A DNA stretch of 64,000 nucleotides from Acidobacteriota bacterium (GTDB lineage: Bacteria > Acidobacteriota > Vicinamibacteria > Vicinamibacterales > CAVVIG01). Where the stretch lies: positions 7,452-71,451 of the forward strand of contig QHWB01000051.1 of assembly GCA_003222395.1 (NCBI GenBank), given 5' to 3'. The stretch's first letter is position 1. Each line of letters begins with the position of its first letter. Of this stretch, positions 5,509 to 62,366 are shown piece by piece. Below the pieces are notes generated by a model. The model was given only the letters and a program-made list of their open reading frames with translations, had not been told where the DNA came from and searched no databases. The translations under genes and the position numbers were made by a program.

Positions 5509-6743
5509 AACGCCTCGACCTCGGCGCGGACCATACCGAGTGCCTGATCGTCGTCGGGGCTCTTGAGCGCGCGCGCGATCAGCTCGCCGACGATTTCCAT
5601 TTCCGGTTCGCGCATGCCGCGCGTCGTGACCGCGGGCGTGCCGATGCGGACGCCGCTCGCGACCATCGGCGGATTCTGATCGAACGGAATGGCGTTCTTG
5701 TTGACCGTGATCGCCGCTTTGCCGAGCGCCGCCTCCGCAACCTTGCCCGTGATGCCCTTCGAGAAGACGTCGACGAGCATCAGGTGAGTATCGGTGCCGC
5801 CGCTGACGAGACGGAAGCCGCTCGCGGTGAGCACTCCCGCGAGCTTCTTCGCGTTTGCCGCGATCTGGCGCTGGTAGTCGGCAAACGCCGGCTCCGCCGC
5901 TTCCTTGAAGCACACGGCCTTGGCCGCGATGATGTGCACCAGCGGCCCGCCCTGCACGCCGGGGAACACGTTCTTGTCGAGCTCCTTGGCGTACTGCTCG
6001 CGGCACAGCACCATGCCCGCCCTCGGGCCGCGCAGCGTTTTGTGCGTCGTCGTCGACACGAAATCGGAGTGGGGGATCGGGCTCGGATGCACGCCCGCGG
6101 CGACGAGACCGGCAATGTGCGCCATGTCGGTCACGACCGCGGCGCCGACGCGGTCGGCGGCGCGGCGGATCCGCGCGAAGTCGATGACGCGCGGATAGGC
6201 GCTCGCACCGACCATGATCATCTTCGGCTTGTGCTGGTCCGCGAGGCGATCGAGCTCGTCGTAGTCGATCCGCTCGTCATCCTTCTTCACGCCGTACGGA
6301 ACGATCGTGTACAGCTTGCCCGAGAAGTTCAGCGGATGGCCGTGCGTCAGGTGGCCGCCGTGCGCGAGATTCATGCCGAGAACGGTATCGCCCGGCTTCA
6401 GCAGCGTGAAGTACACCGCCATGTTGGCCTGCGCACCGGAGTGCGGCTGCACGTTGGCATGATCGGCGCCGAACAGCGCCTTCGCGCGCGAGATGGCGGC
6501 GCGCTCGACCACGTCGACGTACTCGCAGCCGCCGTAATAGCGGCGTCCCGGATACCCCTCGGCGTACTTGTTCGTGAATACCGATCCGGCAGCTTCCAGA
6601 ATCGCGCGGCTGACGAAGTTCTCGGATGCGATCAGCTCGAGGCCGTGATTCTGCCGCCGCAGCTCGTCCGCGATCGCGCCGGCGATCTCGGGGTCCGTTT
6701 CGCGCAGCGTGCGCCACATTGCGGGAGTCGTTTGTGTCGTCAT
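5478..6743 (-). CDS. glyA: serine hydroxymethyltransferase
   Basis: 421 aa; LIASENF, PLP-lysine region [14 protein letters not shown], full-length SHMT architecture. Confidence 0.97.
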
Positions 6744-7320: not shown

Positions 7321-7456
7321 TTCACACAGCTATCGGCTCTCGGCTCTCAGCTCTCAGCTCTCAGCTGTCAGCTGATTCACACAGCTATCGGCTCTCAGCT
7401 GATAGCCGATAGCTGAAAGCTGATAGCTGAAAGCTGATAGCTGAAAGCTGATAGCT
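7321..7456. repeat. unit-repeat hairpin, AGCTGATAGCTGAAAGC family (copy 1)
   Basis: Left arm CAGCTATCGGCTCTCGGCTCTCAGCTCTCAGCTCTCAGCTGTCAGCTGA. Right arm CAGCTGATAGCCGATAGCTGAAAGCTGATAGCTGAAAGCTGATAGCTGAAAGCTGATAGCTG. TTCACACAGCTATCGGCTCT occurs twice (7321, 7375). Ends at the rlmI start. Confidence 0.85.
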
Positions 7457-7459
7457 GTG

Positions 7460-8620
7460 ATGCCGAGCGTCGTCATTTCCGCGCGCGGTGAAGAGCGTCT
7501 GCACGGCGGCCATCCGTGGATCTATCGCGCCGATGTCGCCGACGTGCAGGCGTCGGGCGGCGACATCGTGCAGGTGCGCAGCCGGCGCGGCGGCCGTCCG
7601 CTCGGCAGCGCGCTGTTCAGCGATCGATCCCAGATTTCGCTGCGGATGCTGGCGTACGGCGATCACGTTGCCGACGAAACGCTCGTGCGCCGGCGCCTCG
7701 ACGCGGCCATCCGGTTTCGCGCGTCGCTCGAAATCGACGCGACCGCCTATCGCCTCGTCCATGGCGAGGCGGATCTCCTTCCGTCGCTCATCGTCGATCG
7801 ATACGGTGAGCATCTGGTCGTGCAGGCGCTGTCCCAGGGGATGGATCGACTGCTGCCGGTCGTCGTCTCGACGCTCGAGGAGCTCCTTCATCCGAAAGGC
7901 ATCCTCGCGCGAAACGATCCGCGCGCGCGTCAGCTCGAAGGGCTCGAACAGCGGGTCGAGGTGCTCGCCGGCGACGTGCCGGAGACGGTCATGGTGACGG
8001 AAGTCGGAATCGACTACGACGTCGATCTTCGCCGGGGACAGAAGACGGGGCTGTTTCTCGATCAACGCGAGAATCGCGCGGCCGCGGCGGCTTACGCGCG
8101 GGGCCGGCTGCTCGACTGTTTCAGCTACAACGGCGGATTCGCGCTCGTGCTGGGACGGCGCAGCCAGGAGACGATTGCGATCGACGTGTCGGAAGACGCG
8201 GTGGCGCGCGTCCGGCGGAATGCCGCGCGGAACGGCGTCGCCGTCGACGCGCGCGTCGGCAACGTGTTCGACGAGCTCCGCGGCTTCGAACGGACCGCCG
8301 AGCGCTTCGATACGATCGTGCTCGATCCGCCGGCGTTCGCGAAGAACAAGGCGGCGGTCTCCGGCGCGCTGGCCGGCTACAAGGAGATCAACCTGCGCGC
8401 GCTGAAGCTGCTCAATCCCGGCGGCACGCTCGTCACGTGCAGCTGTTCGTACAACGTCAACGAAGCGATGTTCGCCGAAATCGTCTACGATGCGGCCGTC
8501 GACGCGCAGACGCACGTCACTGTCGTCGAGAAGCGGATGCAGGGGCGCGACCATCCGGTGATGCTCGGCGTTCCCGAAACGTACTATTTGAAATGCTTCA
8601 TCCTACGAAAGCTCGCGTGA
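7460..8620 (+). CDS. rlmI: 23S rRNA m5C methyltransferase RlmI-like (PUA + class I SAM MTase)
   Basis: GHPWIYRADV PUA-like N-term, LDCFSYNGGFAL, IVLDPPAFAK SAM-MTase motifs. ATG 7460 preferred over adjacent GTG 7457. Confidence 0.85.
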   Translation: MPSVVISARGEERLHGGHPWIYRADVADVQASGGDIVQVRSRRGGRPLGSALFSDRSQISLRMLAYGDHVADETLVRRRLDAAIRFRASLEIDATAYRLVHGEADLLPSLIVDRYGEHLVVQALSQGMDRLLPVVVSTLEELLHPKGILARNDPRARQLEGLEQRVEVLAGDVPETVMVTEVGIDYDVDLRRGQKTGLFLDQRENRAAAAAYARGRLLDCFSYNGGFALVLGRRSQETIAIDVSEDAVARVRRNAARNGVAVDARVGNVFDELRGFERTAERFDTIVLDPPAFAKNKAAVSGALAGYKEINLRALKLLNPGGTLVTCSCSYNVNEAMFAEIVYDAAVDAQTHVTVVEKRMQGRDHPVMLGVPETYYLKCFILRKLA

Positions 8621-9795
8621 AGCGCGAGCTGGCCCGGCTGGCGCGCTCGGTCGGCGAGTTCGACGCGAGCCGCTATTTCCGCGGCCCTCGCGATCTCGCG
8701 TTCTACAACGTCGGCACGCCGGCCATGCGCGCGCTGGCGCGATCGATCTACGCCGCCAACGCCGACACCTGGTCGATCGACGACGCGATGGCGCTCGCGA
8801 ACGCGCTGGTGGCCGATCGATATCTCGAGGCGAAGTCGATCGGTATCGAGATCGTCGCACGCTACAAGCGCGACTTCTCGCCGCGCCATCTGCCGACGTG
8901 GAAGCGATGGCTGGCGGAAAACCGTTCGGCGAACTGGGCGACCACCGACGGCATCTGCGGGTGCCTGATCGGTCCGCTGCTCGTCAAACATCCGGAGCTG
9001 GCCGAAGGGATGCGGGCGTGGTCGCGTCATCGGAACATGTGGGTCCGCCGGGCGTCGATCGTGGGTCTGATCCCGCTGGCGCGCCGCGGCGTCGCGCTCG
9101 ACATCGCGTACGACGTCGCGAAGACGCTCCATCGCGACAAGGAAGATCTCGTTCAGAAGGCCGTTGGCTGGACGCTGCGCGAGGCCGGCAAAGCCGATCC
9201 GGCGCGACTCGAGCGCTACCTGCGCGCGAACGGGCCGTCCATTCCGCGGACGACCGTCCGCTATGCGATCGAGCGCTTCGATGAGAAGAAGCGCCGCGAG
9301 CTGCTGTCCGTGACGCTCGGTTCCGGATACGCGCGAGCGCAACCGCGCGACCCGTCGACCCTTCGCGAGCCTCAGGGTCGAGGCGGGGCGCCGCGGCAAA
9401 TGAACGAAGACAGGTTCAAACACAAACCGCGGATCGAGAAGCTCGGTGTCAAGGCGGGCACACGCGTGGCGCTGATCGCCGTCGGCGACAAGGACTTCTC
9501 GCAGGAGGTCCGGCGCGTCGCCGAGGATGTGACGATCGGCCGCGCGCCGGCCGGGTGCGACATCATCTTCTTCGGCGCGGTCAGCGCGAAGGAGCTCGTC
9601 CGGGTCGCGACGCTGAAGACGTGGATGAAGCCCAACGGCGCTCTGTGGGTCATCCGTCCGAAGGGACGGCCGGAGATCTCCGAGCGCGCCGTGATGGACG
9701 CGGGCAAAGCGGCGGGTCTCGTCGACGTGAAGGTCGTCAGCTTTTCCGAGACGCACACCGCGGAGAAGTTCGTGATTCCGCTGGCGGCGAGGTGA
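8593..9795 (+). CDS. AlkD-like DNA alkylation repair (HEAT-like) protein continuous in frame with a DUF3052-like C-terminal domain
   Basis: N-part: ..ANWATTDGICGCLIGPL..WVRRASIV..VQKAVGWTLRE.. (AlkD/AlkC-like). C-part from MNEDRFKHKPRIEKLGVKAGTRV (ATG 9400) resembles DUF3052. No stop in frame between them. ATG 8593 overlaps the rlmI end. Confidence 0.7.
   Translation: MLHPTKARVKRELARLARSVGEFDASRYFRGPRDLAFYNVGTPAMRALARSIYAANADTWSIDDAMALANALVADRYLEAKSIGIEIVARYKRDFSPRHLPTWKRWLAENRSANWATTDGICGCLIGPLLVKHPELAEGMRAWSRHRNMWVRRASIVGLIPLARRGVALDIAYDVAKTLHRDKEDLVQKAVGWTLREAGKADPARLERYLRANGPSIPRTTVRYAIERFDEKKRRELLSVTLGSGYARAQPRDPSTLREPQGRGGAPRQMNEDRFKHKPRIEKLGVKAGTRVALIAVGDKDFSQEVRRVAEDVTIGRAPAGCDIIFFGAVSAKELVRVATLKTWMKPNGALWVIRPKGRPEISERAVMDAGKAAGLVDVKVVSFSETHTAEKFVIPLAAR
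9309..9399 (-). repeat. diverged inverted copy (C) of the composite element at 37463-37604, forming the open linker of the AlkD/DUF3052 ORF
   Basis: Reverse complement of 9309-9340 is GCGCTCGCGCGTATCCGGAACCGAGCGTCACGG. Copy A has CCGCTCGCGCGTATCCAGAACAGAACGTCGCAGC (about 27 of 34 identical). GGCGGGGCGCC at 9382-9392 resembles the module-1 hairpin. Confidence 0.55.
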
Positions 9796-15539: not shown

Positions 15540-16161
15540 CCGTCGGAAAGCGTGCCGGCGCGCCGCCGGGTTTCGGGTTCGGATACCCCTGCGATGCTTC
15601 GGACTGATAATCCTTGACCGTGACGCCCGGCGGAAACGCCATCGTGTCCTCGTTGTACTTGCCGACGTCGAATTCGTGCGTCGCCGGCGTGTCGTACACG
15701 AGCTCGCCCTTCTGCTTGAGCGCTGCGCGGTAATAGACGACGACGTCGACAAACGGCGCCGCGGATCCGAAGATGTAATATCGCTGGCCGCGTCCCGCGT
15801 CATAGGAGGCGAGGAACTGTGAGCCCGGATAGATCGGCACACCGAGCGTCGCTTCAGTCGGCGTCCCTTCAGCTGCGGCGGGCTGCGGTGCCGGCTGCGC
15901 CTGGCGCGGCGCCGGCTGCGTTACCGGCGGCGGCGCCTGAGGCGGCGCGCCCGGTCGCGGAAACGGCTGCGGCACCGGCGGCTGCGCGGCGAAGAGGGTC
16001 AGTGGCGAGAGCGCGCAGACCAAGATCAACCACAGAGACGCAGAGGCCCAGAGCGCAGGCCGCCGCCGTCGACCCGAGCGGCGTTCACGGTCTGCGCACT
16101 GCTTGTTCGAGTATCTCTGGGTCTCGGTGTCTCCGTGGTTTGCGTTGGTCTGCGCGCTCAT
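15508..16161 (-). CDS. secreted proline-rich hypothetical protein
   Basis: RRRRP + LWASASLWLILVCALSPLTLFAAQ signal-like segment, then PQPFPRPGAPPQAPPPV.. and a globular C-terminal domain. Start uncertain. Confidence 0.5.
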   Translation of the reverse strand: MSAQTNANHGDTETQRYSNKQCADRERRSGRRRRPALWASASLWLILVCALSPLTLFAAQPPVPQPFPRPGAPPQAPPPVTQPAPRQAQPAPQPAAAEGTPTEATLGVPIYPGSQFLASYDAGRGQRYYIFGSAAPFVDVVVYYRAALKQKGELVYDTPATHEFDVGKYNEDTMAFPPGVTVKDYQSEASQGYPNPKPGGAPARFPTVIQIVPATVR

Positions 16162-20597: not shown

Positions 20598-20608
20598 AGT
20601 ACCTTGTA

Positions 20609-20657
20609 GGGATTCGGGATTCGGGATTCGGGATTCGGGATTGGCGATTCGGAATTA
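20609..20657. repeat. heptamer tandem array GGGATTC x7 (last three units degenerate)
   Basis: Units at 20609, 20616, 20623, 20630, 20637 (GGGATTG), 20644 (GCGATTC), 20651 (GGAATTA). Lies between convergent clp and radical-SAM genes. Confidence 0.9.
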
Positions 20658-30880: not shown

Positions 30881-31010
30881 CAGGGCAGAGGGCAGAGGGC
30901 ATAGGGCAGAGGGCATAGGGCAGGCAGAGGGCAGACGGCCGAGGGCAGGCAGAGGGCAAAGCGCATAGGGACGCGCAGTGTGCCCTCTGCCCTTTGCCCT
31001 GTGCCCTATC
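30881..31010. repeat. unit-repeat hairpin, GGGCAGAG/GGGCATAG units with shorter complementary arm
   Basis: Left arm, about 12 units (30881-30975). Right arm TGCCCTCTGCCCTTTGCCCTGTGCCCTATC (30981-31010). The stop codon of the kinase gene (31006-31008) lies in the right arm. Confidence 0.85.
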
Positions 31011-37462: not shown

Positions 37463-37604
37463 CGGCGGGGACCCACCCCCGCCGCGGTTGCTCGGCGCAT
37501 GCGCGCCTCGCAACAGCTCAAGGCTGTCACGCGCAGACGCGCTCGCGGCGTAAACCGCTCGCGCGTATCCAGAACAGAACGTCGCAGCACCATTTTGTGT
37601 TGCG
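37463..37604 (+). repeat. composite structured repeat element, copy A (three hairpin modules plus a 49-nt copy-specific insert)
   Basis: Module 1 CGGCGGGG-ACCCAC-CCCCGCCG (37463-37484). Module 2 ACGCGC-TC-GCGG-CGTAAA-CCGC-TC-GCGCGT (37537-37566). Module 3 CGCAGCAC-CATTTT-GTGTTGCG (37583-37604). Matches 61513-61600. Confidence 0.8.
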
Positions 37605-39199: not shown

Positions 39200-40795
39200 A
39201 TGCAGAACCTTCGCTGGAAAGTCATCACGATCATCTCCGTCTTCATTGTCTTCTCTGCCGTCGGCGTGTATCCGATTCTCGCCGCGCGCAAGGGCATCAA
39301 CTCGCCGAGCTGGCTGATGGACAAGCAGTTGAAGCTCGGGCTCGATCTCAAGGGCGGCGTCCATCTCGACCTGCGCGTCCAGACCGACGATGCGCTGCGC
39401 CTCGAAACGGATCTCGAGTCCGAGCGGCTCCGCGAAGAGCTGAAGTCGAAGAACATCACGTTTACCGCCGTCCAGACGATCAACCCGACGCAATTCCGCG
39501 TCGACGGCGTGCCGCCGGCGCAGGACGCGGCGTTCCGAACGGCCGCGAACGAAGTGCAGGCGAACTTCGATCGCGGCTCCGGGACGAACGGCAGCTACAC
39601 CTTCACGATGAAGCCGAACGTGCAGGTGAATCTCCGCGACGAGGCGGTCGTGCAGGCGCGGCAGACGATCGAGCGCCGCGTCAATGAGCTCGGCGTCACT
39701 GAGCCGAGCATCTCGCAGCAGGGCTCGGGCGGCGATCAGATTCTCGTGCAGCTTCCGGGCGTCACCGACGTCGAGCGCGCGAAGCAGATCATGGGATCGC
39801 CGGGACTGCTCGAATTGAAGATCGTCGAGCAGGGGCCGTCGCCGACGAAGGAATCGCTCATGACCAACGGGCAGGTGCCGGCGGGCATGGAAATCGTGCC
39901 TGGCGCAGCCGGCGCGCCCGGTGATGCGAGCACCGTCTACTACCTGGTGAGGAAGGTGGCCGCCGTCACCGGCCGTGATTTGCGCAACGCGCGGCCGTCG
40001 GTCGACGAGAACAATCAGCCCGCGGTGAGCTTCACGCTGAACAACGAAGGCGGACGGAAGTTCGGCAAGGTGACCGGCGAGAACGTCGGCCGCCAGCTCG
40101 CGATCATTCTGGACGGCCGCGTCCAGTCGGCGCCGCGGATCGAATCGCGGATCACGACCGAGGGGCGCATCACCGGCAGCTTCACGTCGGACGAGGTCCA
40201 GAACCTCTCGCTCATCCTGCGCTCGGGTGCCCTGCCGGCCACGCTGACCTATCTCTCGGAGCGAACGATCGGCCCGAGCCTCGGCGCCGACTCGATCCGG
40301 TCCGGCGTCATCGCATCGGTCGTCGGGCTGCTCCTGATCATCAGCTTCATGCTGGTGTACTACAAGTTGTCCGGCGTCAACGCCGTCGTCGCGCTCATCT
40401 TCAACCTCATCATCCTTCTGGGCCTGATGGCGTACATCGGCGCGGTGATGACGCTGCCGGGCATCGCGGGCTTCGTGCTGACGATGGGGATCGGCGTCGA
40501 TTCGAACGTGCTGATCTTCGAGCGCATCAAGGAGGAGCTCGAAGCCGAACGCGGCGTCCGCGCGTCGATTAACGCCGGCTTCGCCCGCGTGTTCTGGACG
40601 CTGGTCGACACGCACGTCGCGGCACTTATCTCGTGCGCGTTTCTGTTCCAGTTCGGCACCGGACCGATCCGCGGCTTCGCCGTCACGCTGTTCATCGGTC
40701 TGATCTCGAACCTGTTCACGTCGATTTTCGTGTCCAAGACGCTGTTCGAAGTGGCGTTGGCGCGGCGCCATCAGGTCGCAACGCTGAGTATTTGA
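39200..40795 (+). CDS. secD: protein translocase subunit SecD
   Basis: 531 aa. Periplasmic domain plus 6 TM, LGLDLKGG, GIAGFVLTMGIGVDSNVLIFERI. Confidence 0.95.
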   Translation: MQNLRWKVITIISVFIVFSAVGVYPILAARKGINSPSWLMDKQLKLGLDLKGGVHLDLRVQTDDALRLETDLESERLREELKSKNITFTAVQTINPTQFRVDGVPPAQDAAFRTAANEVQANFDRGSGTNGSYTFTMKPNVQVNLRDEAVVQARQTIERRVNELGVTEPSISQQGSGGDQILVQLPGVTDVERAKQIMGSPGLLELKIVEQGPSPTKESLMTNGQVPAGMEIVPGAAGAPGDASTVYYLVRKVAAVTGRDLRNARPSVDENNQPAVSFTLNNEGGRKFGKVTGENVGRQLAIILDGRVQSAPRIESRITTEGRITGSFTSDEVQNLSLILRSGALPATLTYLSERTIGPSLGADSIRSGVIASVVGLLLIISFMLVYYKLSGVNAVVALIFNLIILLGLMAYIGAVMTLPGIAGFVLTMGIGVDSNVLIFERIKEELEAERGVRASINAGFARVFWTLVDTHVAALISCAFLFQFGTGPIRGFAVTLFIGLISNLFTSIFVSKTLFEVALARRHQVATLSI

Positions 40796-40918
40796 AGCTT
40801 TCAGCTTTCGGCTGTCCGCTATCAGCTGGTGCTGAAAACTGATAACCGAATGCTGAAAACAAAAGCTGATAGCCGAGAGCTGATAGCTGAAAGCCGATAG
40901 CTGAAAGCCGATAACTGT
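40794..40918. repeat. unit-repeat hairpin, AGCTGATAGCTGAAAGC family (copy 2), between secD and secF
   Basis: Left arm GAAGCTTTCAGCTTTCGGCTGTCCGCTATCAGC. Right arm GCTGATAGCCGAGAGCTGATAGCTGAAAGCCGATAGCTGAAAGCCGATAAC. Same unit family as 7321-7456. Confidence 0.85.
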
Positions 40919-40921
40919 CAT

Positions 40922-41935
40922 ATGCACATTTTCAAGCACACGAATTACGACTTCCTCCGCTGGCGCGTCCACGCGCTCGTGCTGTCGTGGGCCATCATCA
41001 TCGCCGGCGTCATCGCAATCTGGACCAAAGGCATTCCAGAAGGCGTCGAGTTTGCCGGCGGCACGGTCGTCATCGAGAGGTTCGATCGACCGGTGTCGGT
41101 GCAGCAGGTGCGCCAGGCGCTGGACAAGAACTTCCCGGGCGGCGGCCAGAACACCATCGTTCAGGTGTACGGCGATCCGTCGCAGAACCAGGTGATGGTC
41201 CGCGTGCCGACGATCGGCGCCGAGTCCGGGCAGTCGCTCAGCACGATCGCGAGCCAGGTCGACGAGGCCCTGAAGAAGGGAGGCATCGGTACGCCGGAGC
41301 GGGTGGGCACCGAAATCGTCGGTCCGACGGTCGGCGCCGAGCTGAAGAGCCGGGGCATCTGGGCGACGCTGCTCTCGCTCATCGGCATCCTCGCGTATCT
41401 GGCGTTCCGATTCCAATTCAGCTTCGGCGTCGGCGCGGTCGTCGCGACGATTCACGACCTGCTGATCACCCTCGCGTTCCTCGCCTTCTTCCGTTACGAC
41501 CTGTCGCTGAACGTCATCGCCGCCATCCTGACGATGACCGGCTACTCGACCAACGACACGATCGTCATCTTCGACCGAATCCGCGAGAACCTGCGGTCGA
41601 TGCGCCGCGACTCGCTGGACCACATCATCAACGTGTCGGTGAACCAGACGCTGGGCCGGACGGTCATCACGTCGGGCACGGCGCTGCTGACGGCGCTCGC
41701 GCTCTTCTTCTTCGGCGGCGAGGTGCTGCACGGGTTCGCGTTCACGATGGTGGTCGGCATCATTACGGGCACGTACTCGAGCGTCTTCATCGCGGCCGCG
41801 ATCGTCAGCTTCTGGCGCGGCAGCGCGCCGACGCGCGCGGCGGCCCACGCTCCGGCCTCGTCTGTGCCGGCGGTCGCGGCGCCGCAGCAGCCGCAGCGAA
41901 AAGTGAAGCCGCAGCGAAAGGCACGCGCCTCATAA
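40922..41935 (+). CDS. secF: protein translocase subunit SecF
   Basis: 337 aa. SecF periplasmic loop plus 6 TM, GYSTNDTIVIFDRIRE. Confidence 0.95.
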   Translation: MHIFKHTNYDFLRWRVHALVLSWAIIIAGVIAIWTKGIPEGVEFAGGTVVIERFDRPVSVQQVRQALDKNFPGGGQNTIVQVYGDPSQNQVMVRVPTIGAESGQSLSTIASQVDEALKKGGIGTPERVGTEIVGPTVGAELKSRGIWATLLSLIGILAYLAFRFQFSFGVGAVVATIHDLLITLAFLAFFRYDLSLNVIAAILTMTGYSTNDTIVIFDRIRENLRSMRRDSLDHIINVSVNQTLGRTVITSGTALLTALALFFFGGEVLHGFAFTMVVGIITGTYSSVFIAAAIVSFWRGSAPTRAAAHAPASSVPAVAAPQQPQRKVKPQRKARAS

Positions 41936-42006
41936 GTACGAAGTTTGAAGTACGGAGTACGAAGTTCTCGGGCTTTCGTACTTCAGACTTCGTACTTCGA
42001 ACTTTC
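41936..42006. repeat. unit-repeat hairpin, AGTACGAAGT units, between secF and uppP
   Basis: AGTACGAAGTTTGAAGTACGGAGTACGAAG-TTCTCGGG-CTTTCGTACTTCAGACTTCGTACTTCGAACTTT. Confidence 0.8.
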
Positions 42007-47677: not shown

Positions 47678-47690
47678 CGCGACGCTTACA

Positions 47691-47779
47691 TTGCTGATTG
47701 TTGATTGCTGATTGTTGATTGATTGGTCGACCCCCAGTCAGCAATCAATCAGCAATCTGAAATCAGCAATCTGCAATCG
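47691..47779. repeat. unit-repeat hairpin, TTGCTGATTG units, between exbB and exbD
   Basis: Left arm TTGCTGATTGTTGATTGCTGATTGTTGATTGATTGG. Right arm GTCAGCAATCAATCAGCAATCTGAAATCAGCAATCTGCAATCG. Followed by AAGGAG and ATG 47795. Confidence 0.85.
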
Positions 47780-58460: not shown

Positions 58461-60923
58461 ATGAGCGATCACATCGAGAACCTCAAGCCGGAGGACATCT
58501 CGATCGGCGATCGGCCGCTCTCGATTCCGTCGGAGCTGCCGATTCTGCCGCTTCGGGACACGGTCCTCTTTCCGAATTCGTTCATGCCGCTCGCGGTCGC
58601 GCGCGAGAGCTCCGTGCGCCTCATCGACGACGCGATCGCGAACGGCAAGCTCATCGCCGTCTTCACGCAGCGCGATGCCGCCGTCGAGGAGCCGGGGCAG
58701 GACGATCTGTACCCGGTCGGCACCGCGACGCACATCCACAAGATGTTCAAGCTGCCCGACGGCAGCCTTCGTCTCATCGTGCAGGGGCTCGCGCGGCTGC
58801 GCCTCGGGTCGATCGTCGCGACGCAGCCGTACCTGCGCGCGCAGGTGAGCGCGGCCGTCGAGGACACCAACGACGCTGATCGCCTCGAGATCGACGCGCT
58901 CGCGCGCAACATCAAGACGAACTTCCAGCAGGTGGTGTCGCTGTCGCCGCTGCTCTCCGACGACCTGCAGACGCTCGCCGTGAACATCACCGAGCCCGGA
59001 CGCCTCGCGGACTTCATCGCCTCGTCGCTGTCGACCATCAGCACGCAGACCAAGCAGGAGGTGCTGGAGACGCTCGACATTCGCGAACGCCTCGACAACC
59101 TGAATCGGATCCTCATCAAGGAGCTCGAGGTGCTCGAGCTCGGCTCGAAGATTCAGTCGCAGGTGCAGTCGGAGGTCGGCAAGAACCAGCGCGAGTACTT
59201 CCTGCGCGAGCAGATGAAGGCGATTCAGAAGGAGCTCGGCGAAGGCGACGACCAGACCAAGGAAGTCGAGGAGCTCCAGGAGAAGATCGAGGCCGCCGGC
59301 ATGCCGGAGTTGGTCAAGAAGGAGGCGCTGCGCGAGCTCGATCGCTTGTCGAAGATGCCGGTGGCGGCGGCGGAGTACACCGTCTCGCGCACGTATCTCG
59401 ACTGGATCGTTGCGCTGCCGTGGAACAAACGCACCGACGAAGTGATCGATCTGCCGAAGACCAAGCAGGTGCTCGACGCCGATCATTCGGGCCTCGAGCG
59501 CGCGAAGGATCGCATCCTCGAATATCTTGCGGTTCGCAAGCTCAATCCCGAGGTGAAGGGTCCGATCCTCTGCTTCGTGGGTCCTCCCGGCGTCGGCAAG
59601 ACGTCGCTGGCGCGATCGATCGCCGAATCGCTCGGCCGCAAGTTCGTCCGCGTGTCGCTCGGCGGCATGCGTGACGAGGCCGAAATCCGCGGCCACCGCC
59701 GGACTTATATCGGCGCCCTGCCCGGTCAGGTGATTCAGGGTCTGCGCCGCGCCGAGTCGAAGAATCCGGTATTCATCCTCGACGAGATCGACAAGCTCGG
59801 ATCGGACTTCCGCGGCGATCCGGCGTCGGCGCTGCTCGAGGTGCTCGACCCGGAGCAGAACAACACGTTTCGGGATCACTATCTCGACGTGCCGTTCGAT
59901 CTGTCCGAGGTGCTGTTCATCACGACGGCCAACGTGCTCGATCCCGTTCCGCCCGCGTTGAAGGACCGAATGGAAGTGCTCGAGATCGCCGGCTACACCG
60001 AGGAAGAGAAGCTGAAGATCGCCACCGATCACCTCGTCGACAAGCAGGTGAAGAACCACGGGCTGACCGTGGACTACATCCGCTTCACGCCCGACGCGCT
60101 GCGCCAGGTGATTCGCGGGTACACGCGCGAAGCGGGCGTCCGCAACCTCGAGCGCGAGATCGGATCGCTCTGCCGCAAAGTGGCGCGCCGCCGCGCCGAA
60201 GGCAACGAAACGCCGATGGAGGTCACGCCCGACGTCGTCGTCGAGATGCTCGGCGCACCGAAGTTCCTCGACGAGGAGATGGAAGAGCGCACGAAGGATC
60301 CCGGCGTCGCGATCGGCCTCGCGTGGACGCCGGCGGGCGGCGAAGTGCTGTTCATCGAAGCGTCGCGGATGACCGGAGGCGGAACGCTGACGCTCACCGG
60401 GCAGCTCGGCGACGTGATGAAGGAATCGGCGCGCGCGGCGCTCTCGTGGCTTCGCACGCACGCGAGGGAGTACAACATCGACCCCGACTTCTTCAAGAAC
60501 GCCGAGATGCACGTACACGTGCCGTCCGGCGCCATTCCGAAGGACGGTCCGTCGGCCGGCGTCACCATGGCGACGGCGATGGCGTCGGAGCTGACCGGTC
60601 GTCCGGTGCGCGGCGACGTCGCGATGACCGGCGAGCTCACCCTCTCGGGGCGCGTGCTGCCGATTGGAGGCGTGAAGGAAAAGGTGCTCGCGGCGCGCCG
60701 CGTCGGTATTCGCGAAGTGATTCTGCCGAAGCAGAACGCAAAGAACGTCAACGAGGATCTGACGCCGGAGCTGCGGCAGGATCTGACGATCCATCTCGTG
60801 TCGTCGATTGACGAAGTGCTCGCCCTCGCGCTGCAGCCCGTGTCGTCCGACATGCGTCCGCCGAAGAAGCTTCCGAAGGAGCCGGACGCCAAGCCGAGCG
60901 CGCCCGTCGCGGCCCGTCCGTAA
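58461..60923 (+). CDS. lon: ATP-dependent endopeptidase La
   Basis: LON N-domain, [15 protein letters not shown], protease domain [14 protein letters not shown] with catalytic Ser; 820 aa. Confidence 0.97.
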
Positions 60924-60934
60924 GGACGGACCTC

Positions 60935-62041
60935 GTGTCCGCCCGCATCGTCTACTCGGCCCGGTATCGCGTCGATATCGGGCCGCACGTTTTTCCAACC
61001 AGGAAATACGATCTCGTCTACGACGCGCTTGGCCGCCCGCCCGCAGTCGATCCGCCGCCGGCCACGTGGGAAGATCTCTCCCTCGTCCACACGACGGAGT
61101 ATCTCGAGAAGCTCCGAACCGGCACGATGTCGGAGGAGGACGTCGCACAGCTCGAGCTGCCGTGGTCGCCGGAAATGGTCGAAGGATTCCGGGTGATGGT
61201 GGGCGGAACGATCCAGGCCGCTCTGTTCGCCTGCGGTCTGTCCGCCGACAGCACGACGCAGAGACCGCAGAGCCAAGAATCTTCAGCGGCGCCGGAAGGC
61301 CAAGAATTCTCTGCTGACTCTGCGATCTCCGCGTTCAACGTTGGCTGTCACATCGGTGGAGGGCTCCATCACGCATTTCCGAATCACGGCGAAGGCTTCT
61401 GCCCGTTCAACGACGTCGCCGTCGCGGTGCGCGTGCTGCAGCATCGCGGCGTCGGGCGCATCGCGATCGTTGACCTCGACGTACACCATGGGAACGGTAC
61501 GGCATTTATTTTCGGCGGGGCCCCACCCCCGCCGCAGACGCGCTCGGGCCGTAGCCCTCGCGCGTATCAAGAACAGAACGTCACACACGCAAATGTGTTC
61601 ACCTTCTCGATGCACCAGCAGCACAACTACCCGATGTGGAAGCCCCGCGGGTCCCTCGACGTCGGCCTGCCCGACGGTGCGCGCGACGCGACGTTTCTCG
61701 GCGAGCTCGAGCGCGCGCTGCCGAAGGTCGCCGCGCATCGGCCGCAATGTGTGTTCTATCTCGCCGGAGCGGATCCGTACGAGGACGATCAGCTCGGTGG
61801 ACTGCGGTTGACGAAGCAAGGTCTGAGGCGCCGCGATCGCCTCGTCATCGACACCTTCCGGATCGCGGGCGTTCCGATCGTCGTCACGCTCGCTGGCGGC
61901 TACGCGCGGCGGGTCGAAGACACCGTCGCAATCCACGTCGCCACGATCGAAGAAGCTATGGGCGCGGGGGCTGCGTCGGGACCGCCAACAGCACCGCCTC
62001 GAGCCGATCGGGGCCGACAGGCTTCGTCAGGTGAAGGTTGA
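60935..62041 (+). CDS. histone-deacetylase-family (class II/APAH-like) deacetylase carrying two in-frame repeat insertions
   Basis: GGGLHHAFPNHGEGFCPFNDVAV, VDLDVHHGNGT, VFTFSMH, LAGADPYEDDQLG motifs. GTG start 12 nt after the lon stop. Confidence 0.85.
   Translation: MSARIVYSARYRVDIGPHVFPTRKYDLVYDALGRPPAVDPPPATWEDLSLVHTTEYLEKLRTGTMSEEDVAQLELPWSPEMVEGFRVMVGGTIQAALFACGLSADSTTQRPQSQESSAAPEGQEFSADSAISAFNVGCHIGGGLHHAFPNHGEGFCPFNDVAVAVRVLQHRGVGRIAIVDLDVHHGNGTAFIFGGAPPPPQTRSGRSPRAYQEQNVTHANVFTFSMHQQHNYPMWKPRGSLDVGLPDGARDATFLGELERALPKVAAHRPQCVFYLAGADPYEDDQLGGLRLTKQGLRRRDRLVIDTFRIAGVPIVVTLAGGYARRVEDTVAIHVATIEEAMGAGAASGPPTAPPRADRGRQASSGEG
61240..61341. repeat. hairpin repeat inserted in frame in the deacetylase gene
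   Basis: Inverted arms CGCAGAGACCGCAGAG / CTCTGCTGACTCTGCG, internal direct GCCAAGAAT x2 and CTTC-AGCGGCGCCG-GAAG hairpin. Encodes LSADSTTQRPQSQESSAAPEGQEFSADSAISAFNV. Confidence 0.7.
61513..61600 (+). repeat. composite structured repeat element, copy B, in frame in the deacetylase gene
   Basis: CGGCGGGG-CCCCAC-CCCCGCCG, then CAGACGCGCTCGGGCCGTAGCCCTCGCGCGTATCAAGAACAGAACGTCACACACGCAAATGTGTT. Collinear with 37463-37484 plus 37534-37600. Confidence 0.8.
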
Positions 62042-62366
62042 ATCCCGCCTCGAGCGCCTTACGGCGATCGTCCGGGTGTCCCCATCCGGTCACCGCAATC
62101 AGATGCACCGATGATAGAGACGCGTCGGCGCGGAATCGCCGGGCGACCTCGTAGCCGTCGATGCCGCCGGGCAGTCCGATGTCGCACAGGAGGACGTCCG
62201 GCCGCTCTTCCCGTGCAGCCGCGATCGCATCCCGCCCGAGATGCACGACGCGCGCGCGGTGCCCGAGGAGATCGAGGAGCGCGCGGAGCGTCCGGGCGAC
62301 GTCGACGTCGTCCTCGACGACGAGCACGCTCAGCGAGCGGGCGGCGCTTCGTTTTTTCGCGCGCAC
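61956..62366 (-). CDS. single-domain response regulator (CheY-like receiver)
   Basis: VLVVEDD, phospho-acceptor LLCDIGLPG, LTKPV. GTG start. 3' end overlaps the deacetylase tail by 86 nt. Confidence 0.8.
   Translation of the reverse strand: MRAKKRSAARSLSVLVVEDDVDVARTLRALLDLLGHRARVVHLGRDAIAAAREERPDVLLCDIGLPGGIDGYEVARRFRADASLSSVHLIAVTGWGHPDDRRKALEAGFNLHLTKPVGPDRLEAVLLAVPTQPPRP

Follow-up and report, generated by a model that had tools for sequence, protein, structure and literature searches.

How does a conserved bacterial gene come to carry a hairpin repeat within its coding sequence, in frame and translated? The question is raised by a 64,000-nucleotide stretch of an Acidobacteriota genome (contig QHWB01000051.1; 'the window' below means this whole stretch), in which the gene for an HDAC11-like deacylase contains about 32 codons more than its relatives outside the lineage. 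An earlier note, made from the sequence, had described the segment as a hairpin-repeat insertion. We followed it up by comparing the locus with about 165 orthologous loci, designated here by L numbers. Related loci place the source lineage in the Acidobacteriota order Vicinamibacterales (gp6). We conclude that the segment is probably a copy of a small hairpin repeat of dispersed occurrence, the Q type, which is tolerated in frame and translated. This type belongs to the hairpins with short tandem units that are otherwise intergenic in Vicinamibacterales.

The extra segment and its hairpin architecture

The gene, the segment and the parts of the repeat lie as follows.

60935-62041, plus strand: host gene, an HDAC11-like (class IV, PF00850) deacylase of 368 amino acids, defined by open reading frame (ORF), Pfam, nearest structure and motifs
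~61235-61330 (boundaries approximate), plus strand: extra coding segment at site 1, about G101-S132, 32 codons over the ancestral spacing, defined by 9gz5 and ortholog spacing
61256-61338, plus strand: Q-type hairpin repeat element proper, defined by the inverted repeat and by an nhmmer profile made from other genomes' copies
61257-61274, plus strand: left arm, two 9-nt units, CGCAGAGAC and CGCAGAGCC, defined by comparison with relatives and inspection
61281-61307, plus strand: nested 27-nt secondary piece (CTTCAGCGGCGCCGGAAG and the second GCCAAGAAT copy) encoding ESSAAPEGQ, confined to the window and loci L161 and L162
61307-61333, plus strand: right arm, three 9-nt units, TTCTCTGCT, GACTCTGCG and ATCTCCGCG, defined by inverted-repeat analysis

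The host protein is a typical member of its family. It matches the Pfam family PF00850 (Hist_deacetyl) with an E value of 9e-52, and its nearest solved homologue is 9gz5, an HDAC11-type deacylase from Leptospira (phmmer E 1e-59; Foldseek E 1.8e-26, template-modelling (TM) score 0.84 normalised to the target, 36% identity). This enzyme takes the place of the APAH/HDAH enzymes that had been suggested as the structural reference. The catalytic and zinc-binding motifs are intact (HHA at 145, DLDVHHGNG at 180, GADPY at 278 and GGY at 321) and invariant across the ortholog alignment. The ratio of nonsynonymous to synonymous substitution rates (dN/dS) is 0.11-0.25 for the core, showing that the core is under purifying selection.

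Alignment with 9gz5 breaks twice. At site 1, query residues 95-136 span just chain residues 108-117, leaving about 32 residues extra; at site 2, residues 197-219 have no counterpart. The site-1 segment sits between the helix ending in GGTIQAALFAC and the strand NVGCHI that leads to GGGLHHA, and the spacing from GGT to GGG is 48 residues in the window versus exactly 16 in outgroup orthologs from Gemmatimonadota and Bryobacteraceae. The ORF call, the Pfam match and these spacings thus bear out the earlier note on the place of the segment, on its being an insertion relative to the family, and on the preserved frame free of stop codons. Its figure of about 33 extra residues is close to ours, although the peptide that it quoted is actually 35 residues long. 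Its placement of the insert just before the active-site loop holds in sequence but not in the fold: the insert lies at the N-terminal end of strand 136-140, and GGGLHHA follows the C-terminal end.

What does the segment look like in the protein? In an AlphaFold2 model (mean predicted local distance difference test score (pLDDT) 74, predicted TM score 0.78), residues 106-132, between helix 79-99 and strand 136-140, fall below a pLDDT of 50. Site 2 (residues 197-216) does so as well, and the C-terminal tail is equally disordered. The segment is predicted to form a disordered surface loop, which by the usual alpha/beta topology would project from the side of the sheet opposite the catalytic pocket. 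Serine is enriched fourfold in site-1 inserts, and hydrophobic residues make up 21% of them versus 31% of the core. Between inserts of the same type dN/dS is about 0.46-0.95 (L162, L163 and L164; few codons); for L161 it is 0, with no nonsynonymous differences in only 36 codons. For the enzyme itself the insert is probably inconsequential.

In the DNA, inverted arms at 61257-61272 and 61309-61324 (16 nt) show 88% complementarity, and a longer version at 61256-61275 and 61315-61334 (20 nt) shows 85%. The unit consensus is CGCAGAGNN on the left (two units) and NNCTCYGCG on the right (three units); the arm pair of the Q family is CGCAGAGNN / NNCTCTGCG, and the family's termini read (GGA)ACGC...GCGT(TCC). 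The arm motif has 3 matches in the window against 0.36 expected. Between the arms, an 18-nt quasi-palindrome, CTTCAGCGGCGCCGGAAG, occupies 61281-61298, and GCCAAGAAT occurs as a direct repeat at 61272-61280 and 61299-61307. This 9-nt direct repeat flanks the nested 27-nt piece, which alone among the pieces at the site is so flanked.

The arms and the direct repeat had been noticed before and are present at the coordinates that we found; the proposed likeness to the lineage's intergenic hairpins also stands, with short tandem units in both arms. The CTTC...GAAG stem described as central is real, but together with the GCCAAGAAT repeat it belongs to the 27-nt piece, which is confined to the window and its closest relatives, and it lies outside the basic architecture. 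The suggestion that flanking SADS..SADS codons mark a target duplication fails: only 7 of 12 bases match, and other orthologs whose insert is of this type lack the first SADS.

Three other identities were considered. A known RNA family was rejected after an Rfam scan without a match at gathering score across the whole window, or at E up to 1 for 60850-61700. A scan with the terminator consensus finds nothing at site 1, so that a terminator function of the in-gene copy is rejected. An intein, intron or other excised element was set aside on the size of about 32 residues and on the absence of such motifs.

Some features of the host gene and its borders deserve mention in their own right. Directly upstream lies lon (58461-60923), and the lon-deacylase gap in the window is 11 nt, with no Q-type element inside. 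A terminator-like hairpin with a T-run (CGGCCCGGTATCGCGTCGATATCGGGCCG CACGTTTTTC) is found at 60957-60994, within the first 20 deacylase codons and 35 nt past the stop codon of lon. Its sequence overlaps the codons of the conserved peptide YRxDIGPHVFP, and L003 has a counterpart (L003:6014-6052). The hairpin may serve lon as a terminator set within the following gene, or may simply result from the codons. At the other end, the deacylase ORF shares 86 nt (61956-62041) with a response-regulator ORF that converges on it from the minus strand (61956-62366). The C-terminal tail, residues 345-368, modelled as disordered, is restricted to the closest relatives, which suggests a recent shift of the stop codon.

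A dispersed family and a recurrent site

Folded by itself, the window insert is not significant (DNA fold z between -1.3 and -1.8 when compared with shuffles, and -1.6 relative to the background of the window), and the case therefore rests on comparative data. We built a profile hidden Markov model from 12 Q-type copies, all from other genomes and with the window excluded. With nhmmer it matches the window at 61256-61338 (E 9e-9, score 35.5), and in related genomes it finds seven intergenic copies.

L003:5911-5985 (element at 5905-5985), L085:2563-2631 (element at 2561-2631) and L093:2632-2697: Q-type copies in the lon-deacylase spacer, just upstream of the deacylase start codon (profile matches)
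L084:240-303, L104:2554-2619 and L122:970-1032: further Q-type copies in the lon-deacylase spacer (profile matches)
L081:1016-1083: Q-type copy 4 kb upstream of the deacylase gene (profile match)

The L087 spacer gives a weaker, partial match. In L003 the intergenic copy reads GGAACGCCGAGCTCGCCGAGCACGCCGAG...CTCGGCGTTC and the in-gene copy GGAACGCCGAGCCCGCCGAGAACGCCGAG...CTCGGCGTTC; from unit order and termini the two are plainly paralogous, to judge by their sequences. In L085 the spacer and in-gene copies have the loop AAAACCAACC in common. A T-rich run follows the spacer copies in L003 and L085, whereas the in-gene copies lack one. The window element is thus shown to belong to the Q-type family, with paralogous intergenic copies in related genomes. 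Where the spacer holds a Q copy, six of seven genomes also have the Q type at site 1, versus 6 of 65 without one (Fisher p 3.8e-5, uncorrected for phylogeny).

The lon-deacylase spacer is a second recurrent home of Q-type hairpins, and other hairpin types are found there in L014, L019, L137, L081 and L083. A CAGAG-rich hairpin of the window (16009-16159) was tried as a further Q copy and rejected: it shares a short motif only, and the Q-type profile gives no match.

Is the insert peculiar to the window, as the idea of a private or recent insertion would have it? It is not. Orthologs from crown-clade Vicinamibacterales, at 57-99% identity, carry inserts at the same site, many of them of the same type. 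The earlier note had held that homologous residues in orthologs from unrelated taxa would speak against an insertion; many orthologs do share them, but all fall within one order. In deep Vicinamibacterales the spacing from GGT to GGG is mostly 16-20 residues. Among the 87 loci of the crown clade it is longer by 0 to 54 residues (median 18), with at least 10 extra in 59 loci and just 0-2 in nine. At least six hairpin or tandem types, unrelated in sequence, are found at site 1.

Q type (the window's): peptide TQRxQS...SAxSAxSAFNV, unit CGCAGAGNN; window, L003, L087
K type: peptide LEVRSxKSEV...SDFRLQTSDFRV, unit GAAGTCN; L002, L092, L119
E type: peptide LDEFRIQNSEFRI, unit GAATTC; L007, L094, L131
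NP type, tandem arrays: NPKSRP repeats, unit GAATCCC; L080, L129, L139
SWFDKL palindrome: peptide SWFDKLTTSE...RPEPVEGR, no tandem units; L124, L098
Near-perfect 28-bp stem: peptide AQFGIRNLEFG..., mixed units; L115
Other site-1 types: various peptides and units; L110/L108, L017, L013

These inserts fold far better than other parts of the same gene. Folded as DNA, 59 distinct site-1 inserts have a mean z of -2.35 (33 below -2 and 23 below -3), whereas length-matched controls from the same gene have means of -0.10 and -0.23 (Mann-Whitney against inserts, p = 2e-10). Site 1 is therefore a hotspot for hairpin-forming repeat DNA. L080, L006 and L010 hold tandem arrays there that are larger than the window's. 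Types other than Q also recur elsewhere: the SWFDKL palindrome of L124 and L098 upstream of the gene at L081:4921-4973 and L083:8-43, and K-type (GAAGTC) hairpins at L129:7340-7470, at L014:5965 and in the window at 41934-42000. A neighbour-joining tree of all orthologs is poorly resolved in the crown, too weakly to count independent gains.

The K type has a property of its own. Its arms (L002, L092, L119 and others) consist of 7-nt units, in which a slip of one unit would shift the frame, and a perfect (GAAGTCT)3 array puts an in-frame TGA in every frame; the coding K copies escape through a varied spacer base. Through slippage, alleles of this type might in principle act as an on-off switch for the gene.

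The closest relatives record the recent history of the window's copy. L161, at 98% protein identity, has an extra 9-nt unit, GCAGAACAC, as its sole unit difference from the window; in the DNA alignment the arms hold 3+3 units in L161 and L162 and 2+3 in the window. The nested 27-nt piece is present in the window, L161 and L162 and missing from L163 and the other Q-type orthologs, and from this distribution it appears to be a secondary insertion or duplication. A search of 1.35 Mb of related sequence that allowed up to 2 mismatches finds its 18-nt palindrome, CTTCAGCGGCGCCGGAAG, nowhere else. Most of the element is deleted in L164 and L165. K-type sequence or a remnant of it occupies site 1 in L165-L167, whose synonymous divergence from the window in the core is 0.35-0.38, versus 0.50 for Q-type L164 and 0.73 for Q-type L163. 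L165-L167 nest inside the Q-type lineages in 137 of 200 bootstrap replicates (local topology around the window only). This nesting suggests, with moderate support, that the Q type was replaced by the K type at the same site in their ancestry.

Origin and persistence of the insert

How did the repeat get into the gene, and why has it stayed? We propose that a Q copy entered the surface loop between helix and beta-strand of the deacylase in an ancestor of the crown clade. It would have persisted because the loop tolerates a disordered, serine-rich stretch and only stop-free variants with lengths in multiples of three survive. Its later evolution would have been that of repeat DNA and not of protein: whole units gained and lost by slippage, secondary insertions or duplications, decay and deletion and, on at least one occasion, probably, a hairpin of unrelated type taking its place. 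The element was presumably copied in rather than formed on the spot, and may be neutral or nearly so. An existing hairpin may also make the site prone to acquire more of them.

Several observations weigh against this account. The window hairpin is energetically weak (z about -1.7), among the more decayed examples at site 1. Neither blastn (E below 0.05) nor the Q profile finds a second Q-type copy in the window's 64 kb. The junctions of all insert types were inspected, and no consistent target-site duplication or other insertion scar was found. The association between spacer and in-gene copies rests on about three independent lineages, and the topology behind the type replacement has a bootstrap of only 68%. 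Finally, a hairpin has persisted at the same codon position in a broad clade while the sequence turned over, as selection for structure also predicts.

Such selection is the main rival. The hairpin would be maintained as an RNA or DNA stem-loop in the lon-deacylase transcript, serving as a site of RNase processing or stability, as a translational pause or in partial termination. A pause would fall between the N-terminal segment and the catalytic core, and the sequence would be free to change if the stem remains. Hairpin potential is indeed strongly enriched at exactly site 1 over 59 distinct, sequence-unrelated orthologs; the same family occurs in the lon-deacylase spacer, where the T-rich run in L003 and L085 fits a terminator role; and spacer and in-gene positions co-vary in type. 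We nevertheless regard stem-loop selection as unlikely. The insert is missing from every outgroup and from nine of the 87 crown orthologs, 10 of the 59 inserts have z above 0, and L080 is a pure tandem array without a stem. It is these insert-free orthologs, decayed stems and stem-less arrays that weigh against it, together with the asymmetry of the window copy, which has lost one unit, and with the in-gene copies' lack of a T-run, the null terminator scan and the absence of an Rfam match. Exchange of whole hairpin elements would equally lead one to expect stems that survive sequence turnover. A broader claim, possible though doubtful, is that the hotspot is driven by nucleic-acid structure, an existing hairpin recruiting more, or that the stem-loop itself is selected at site 1. 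If recruitment were at work, it would account for at least six hairpin families at one codon position and for the tendency of the in-gene copy to match the spacer hairpin about 350 nt upstream. Either a structure-driven hotspot or a selected stem-loop would offer, in Acidobacteriota, a tractable natural case for following how small hairpin repeats move and what maintains them.

A different origin would be local, with replication slippage and template switching in the DNA of the loop creating the repeat, and the intergenic hairpins reflecting the same mutational bias. Unit-scale insertions and deletions are seen directly, site 1 of L080 and of L006/L010 holds tandem-only arrays, the junctions lack target-site duplications, and heptamer-scale tandem repeats are described as common and attributed to slippage (as stated in PMC4679880, citing Mrazek 2007). 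Convergent slippage would not, however, yield in-gene and intergenic copies that share termini, unit order and even the loop, as those of L003 and L085 do. The palindrome of L124 and L098 has no tandem units and yet recurs in the intergenic DNA of other genomes, and at least six unrelated types occupy the one site. A local origin is thus improbable too. Could the loop instead be functional as protein, with regulation, interaction or localisation selecting the peptide and the symmetry of the DNA incidental? Q-type orthologs at 65-77% identity do retain a recognisable peptide, TQRxQS...FSAxSAxSAFNV, and the insert has been retained for long. Conserved 9-nt DNA units give such conservation automatically, however, and the peptides are unrelated between types, range from 0 to 54 extra residues and are predicted to be disordered. 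In most comparisons the dN/dS of the insert is several-fold above that of the core, and a hairpin signal in the DNA is not expected of a loop selected as protein; this explanation seems to us very unlikely. An assembly or sequencing artefact has next to no chance of being correct. Palindromic repeats can confuse assemblers, but the same insert with small differences is present in independent assemblies from other samples (L161 and L162), dozens of genomes carry homologous inserts, and 55 sequences fall into the 90%-identity cluster of P0001. The assembly error that the earlier note had named as a possible refutation is thus contradicted by independent assemblies.

Other repeats in the window and comparison with known systems

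The in-frame Q-type copy is one of several repeats in the window.

61514-61584, plus strand: second, unrelated in-frame repeat insert (site 2), GGAPPPPQTRSGRSPRAYQEQNVT, about 22 extra residues, recognised by repeat copies elsewhere in the window
7321-7475 and 40775-40935: large intergenic hairpins of alternating heptamers AGCTGAA/AGCTGAT
16009-16159: intergenic CAGAG-rich hairpin (arms of 45 nt) that ends at the start codon ATG of an M20 peptidase gene
20600-20650: intergenic short-unit array, GGGATTC x6
30885-31010: intergenic hairpin, units GGGCAGA/GGGCATA
41934-42000: intergenic hairpin, GAAGT-type units
47690-47770: intergenic hairpin, unit ATTGCTG/ATTGTTG

The window's intergenic hairpins fold much more strongly than the one at site 1. 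Those at 7321-7475 and 40775-40935 lie 33 kb apart and show 88% complementarity over 40 nt between the loci; the same heptamers at two places are thus within-genome evidence for dispersed families of short-unit hairpins. Rfam gives no match for the arrays and hairpins at 16009-16159, 20600-20650, 30885-31010, 41934-42000 and 47690-47770.

The site-2 repeat is dispersed, with the conserved ends GCGGCGGGGCCCCACCCCCGCC ... CTCGCGCGTATCCAGAACAGAACGTCAC. The intergenic space between ddl and tgt holds one copy (37463-37586), and another, reverse-complemented at 9310-9350 (up to 9400), lies within the C-terminal extension of a DNA-alkylation-repair ORF. Among the orthologs the site-2 insert is patchy, with a longer version in some. 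The DNA_alkylation repair ORF (8437-9795) encodes 452 amino acids, and its Pfam domain ends at residue 281 (nt ~9280); the site-2-type copy starts exactly at this point and may have lengthened or otherwise changed the gene's 3' end.

How does the Q type compare with known repeats? [quoted passage not shown] The Q type is likewise short, hairpin-forming and dispersed. It differs from MITEs in the lack of a consistent target-site duplication at the junctions of any type. A REP carries a GTAG or CGTC tetranucleotide as its 5' tag and has an associated RAYT gene (PMC3733652). By inspection the Q-type termini, (GGA)ACGC...GCGT(TCC), show no such tag. The internal periodicity of the Q-type arms is atypical of REPs.

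Cyanobacterial STRR-type repeats are heptanucleotide tandem repeats. Repeats with units of about this size are given as the commonest long simple repeats of bacteria and put down to polymerase slippage in PMC4679880 (citing Mrazek 2007), which describes the TAACTGA repeats of Beggiatoaceae as long-unit simple sequence repeats. The likeness lies in 7-9-nt tandem units that are lineage-specific, mostly intergenic and altered by whole-unit slippage. Judged by head-to-tail units of 5-11 nt that vary by whole units, the element qualifies, with two 9-nt units on the left, three on the right and a one-unit difference from L161. The known examples are mainly direct arrays, whereas here the arrays pair with their own reverse complement as hairpins, and one of them is translated. 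Tandem repeats of Borgs create disordered protein regions: fast-evolving nucleotide repeats that lie inside ORFs and have lengths in multiples of three yield polar segments (PMC9879509). The Q-type insert is similarly a nucleotide repeat within an ORF, with a length that is a multiple of three and a polar segment predicted to be disordered. Borg repeats, however, are perfect, direct and local in origin, whereas here the element is inverted and dispersed. In this way the deacylase insert is an example of repeat DNA creating disordered protein segments, and a caution for annotation: length variation in the HDAC11-like family may be driven by repeats rather than by function.

'Selfish' palindromes that sit in frame within housekeeping genes are known above all from Rickettsia. 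As summarised in PMC10969869, the Rickettsia palindromic elements (RPEs; Ogata et al. 2000, 2002) are small dispersed palindromes found between genes and in frame within unrelated housekeeping genes. According to that summary they are translated, adding peptide segments where the protein fold allows them, and have no known function; they are about 100-150 bp long and form defined families, each with a conserved peptide, restricted to Rickettsia, obligate intracellular alphaproteobacteria. By analogy the Q type resembles them: it is palindromic, forms hairpins, occurs elsewhere between genes, and keeps the frame of the conserved gene in which it lies, where its position, the loop joining helix 79-99 to strand 136-140, suits the fold. 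The analogy is one of function only; we claim no membership and expect no sequence relationship. The Q type is about 70-80 bp long with arms of 7-9-nt tandem units, and its host is a free-living soil acidobacterium, and a single site has here hosted several unrelated hairpin types. We found no published description of such hairpins in Acidobacteria/Acidobacteriota in the literature. New with respect to RPEs are therefore the architecture of the element, the host and the multi-family hotspot: the phenomenon also occurs in Acidobacteriota, which are abundant and free-living in soil, and there involves an element of another kind, with arms of short tandem units. Many times over, one permissive loop has been filled, altered, cleared and, probably, filled again, and its filled, decayed and empty alleles form a natural series for tracing the spread of hairpin repeats.

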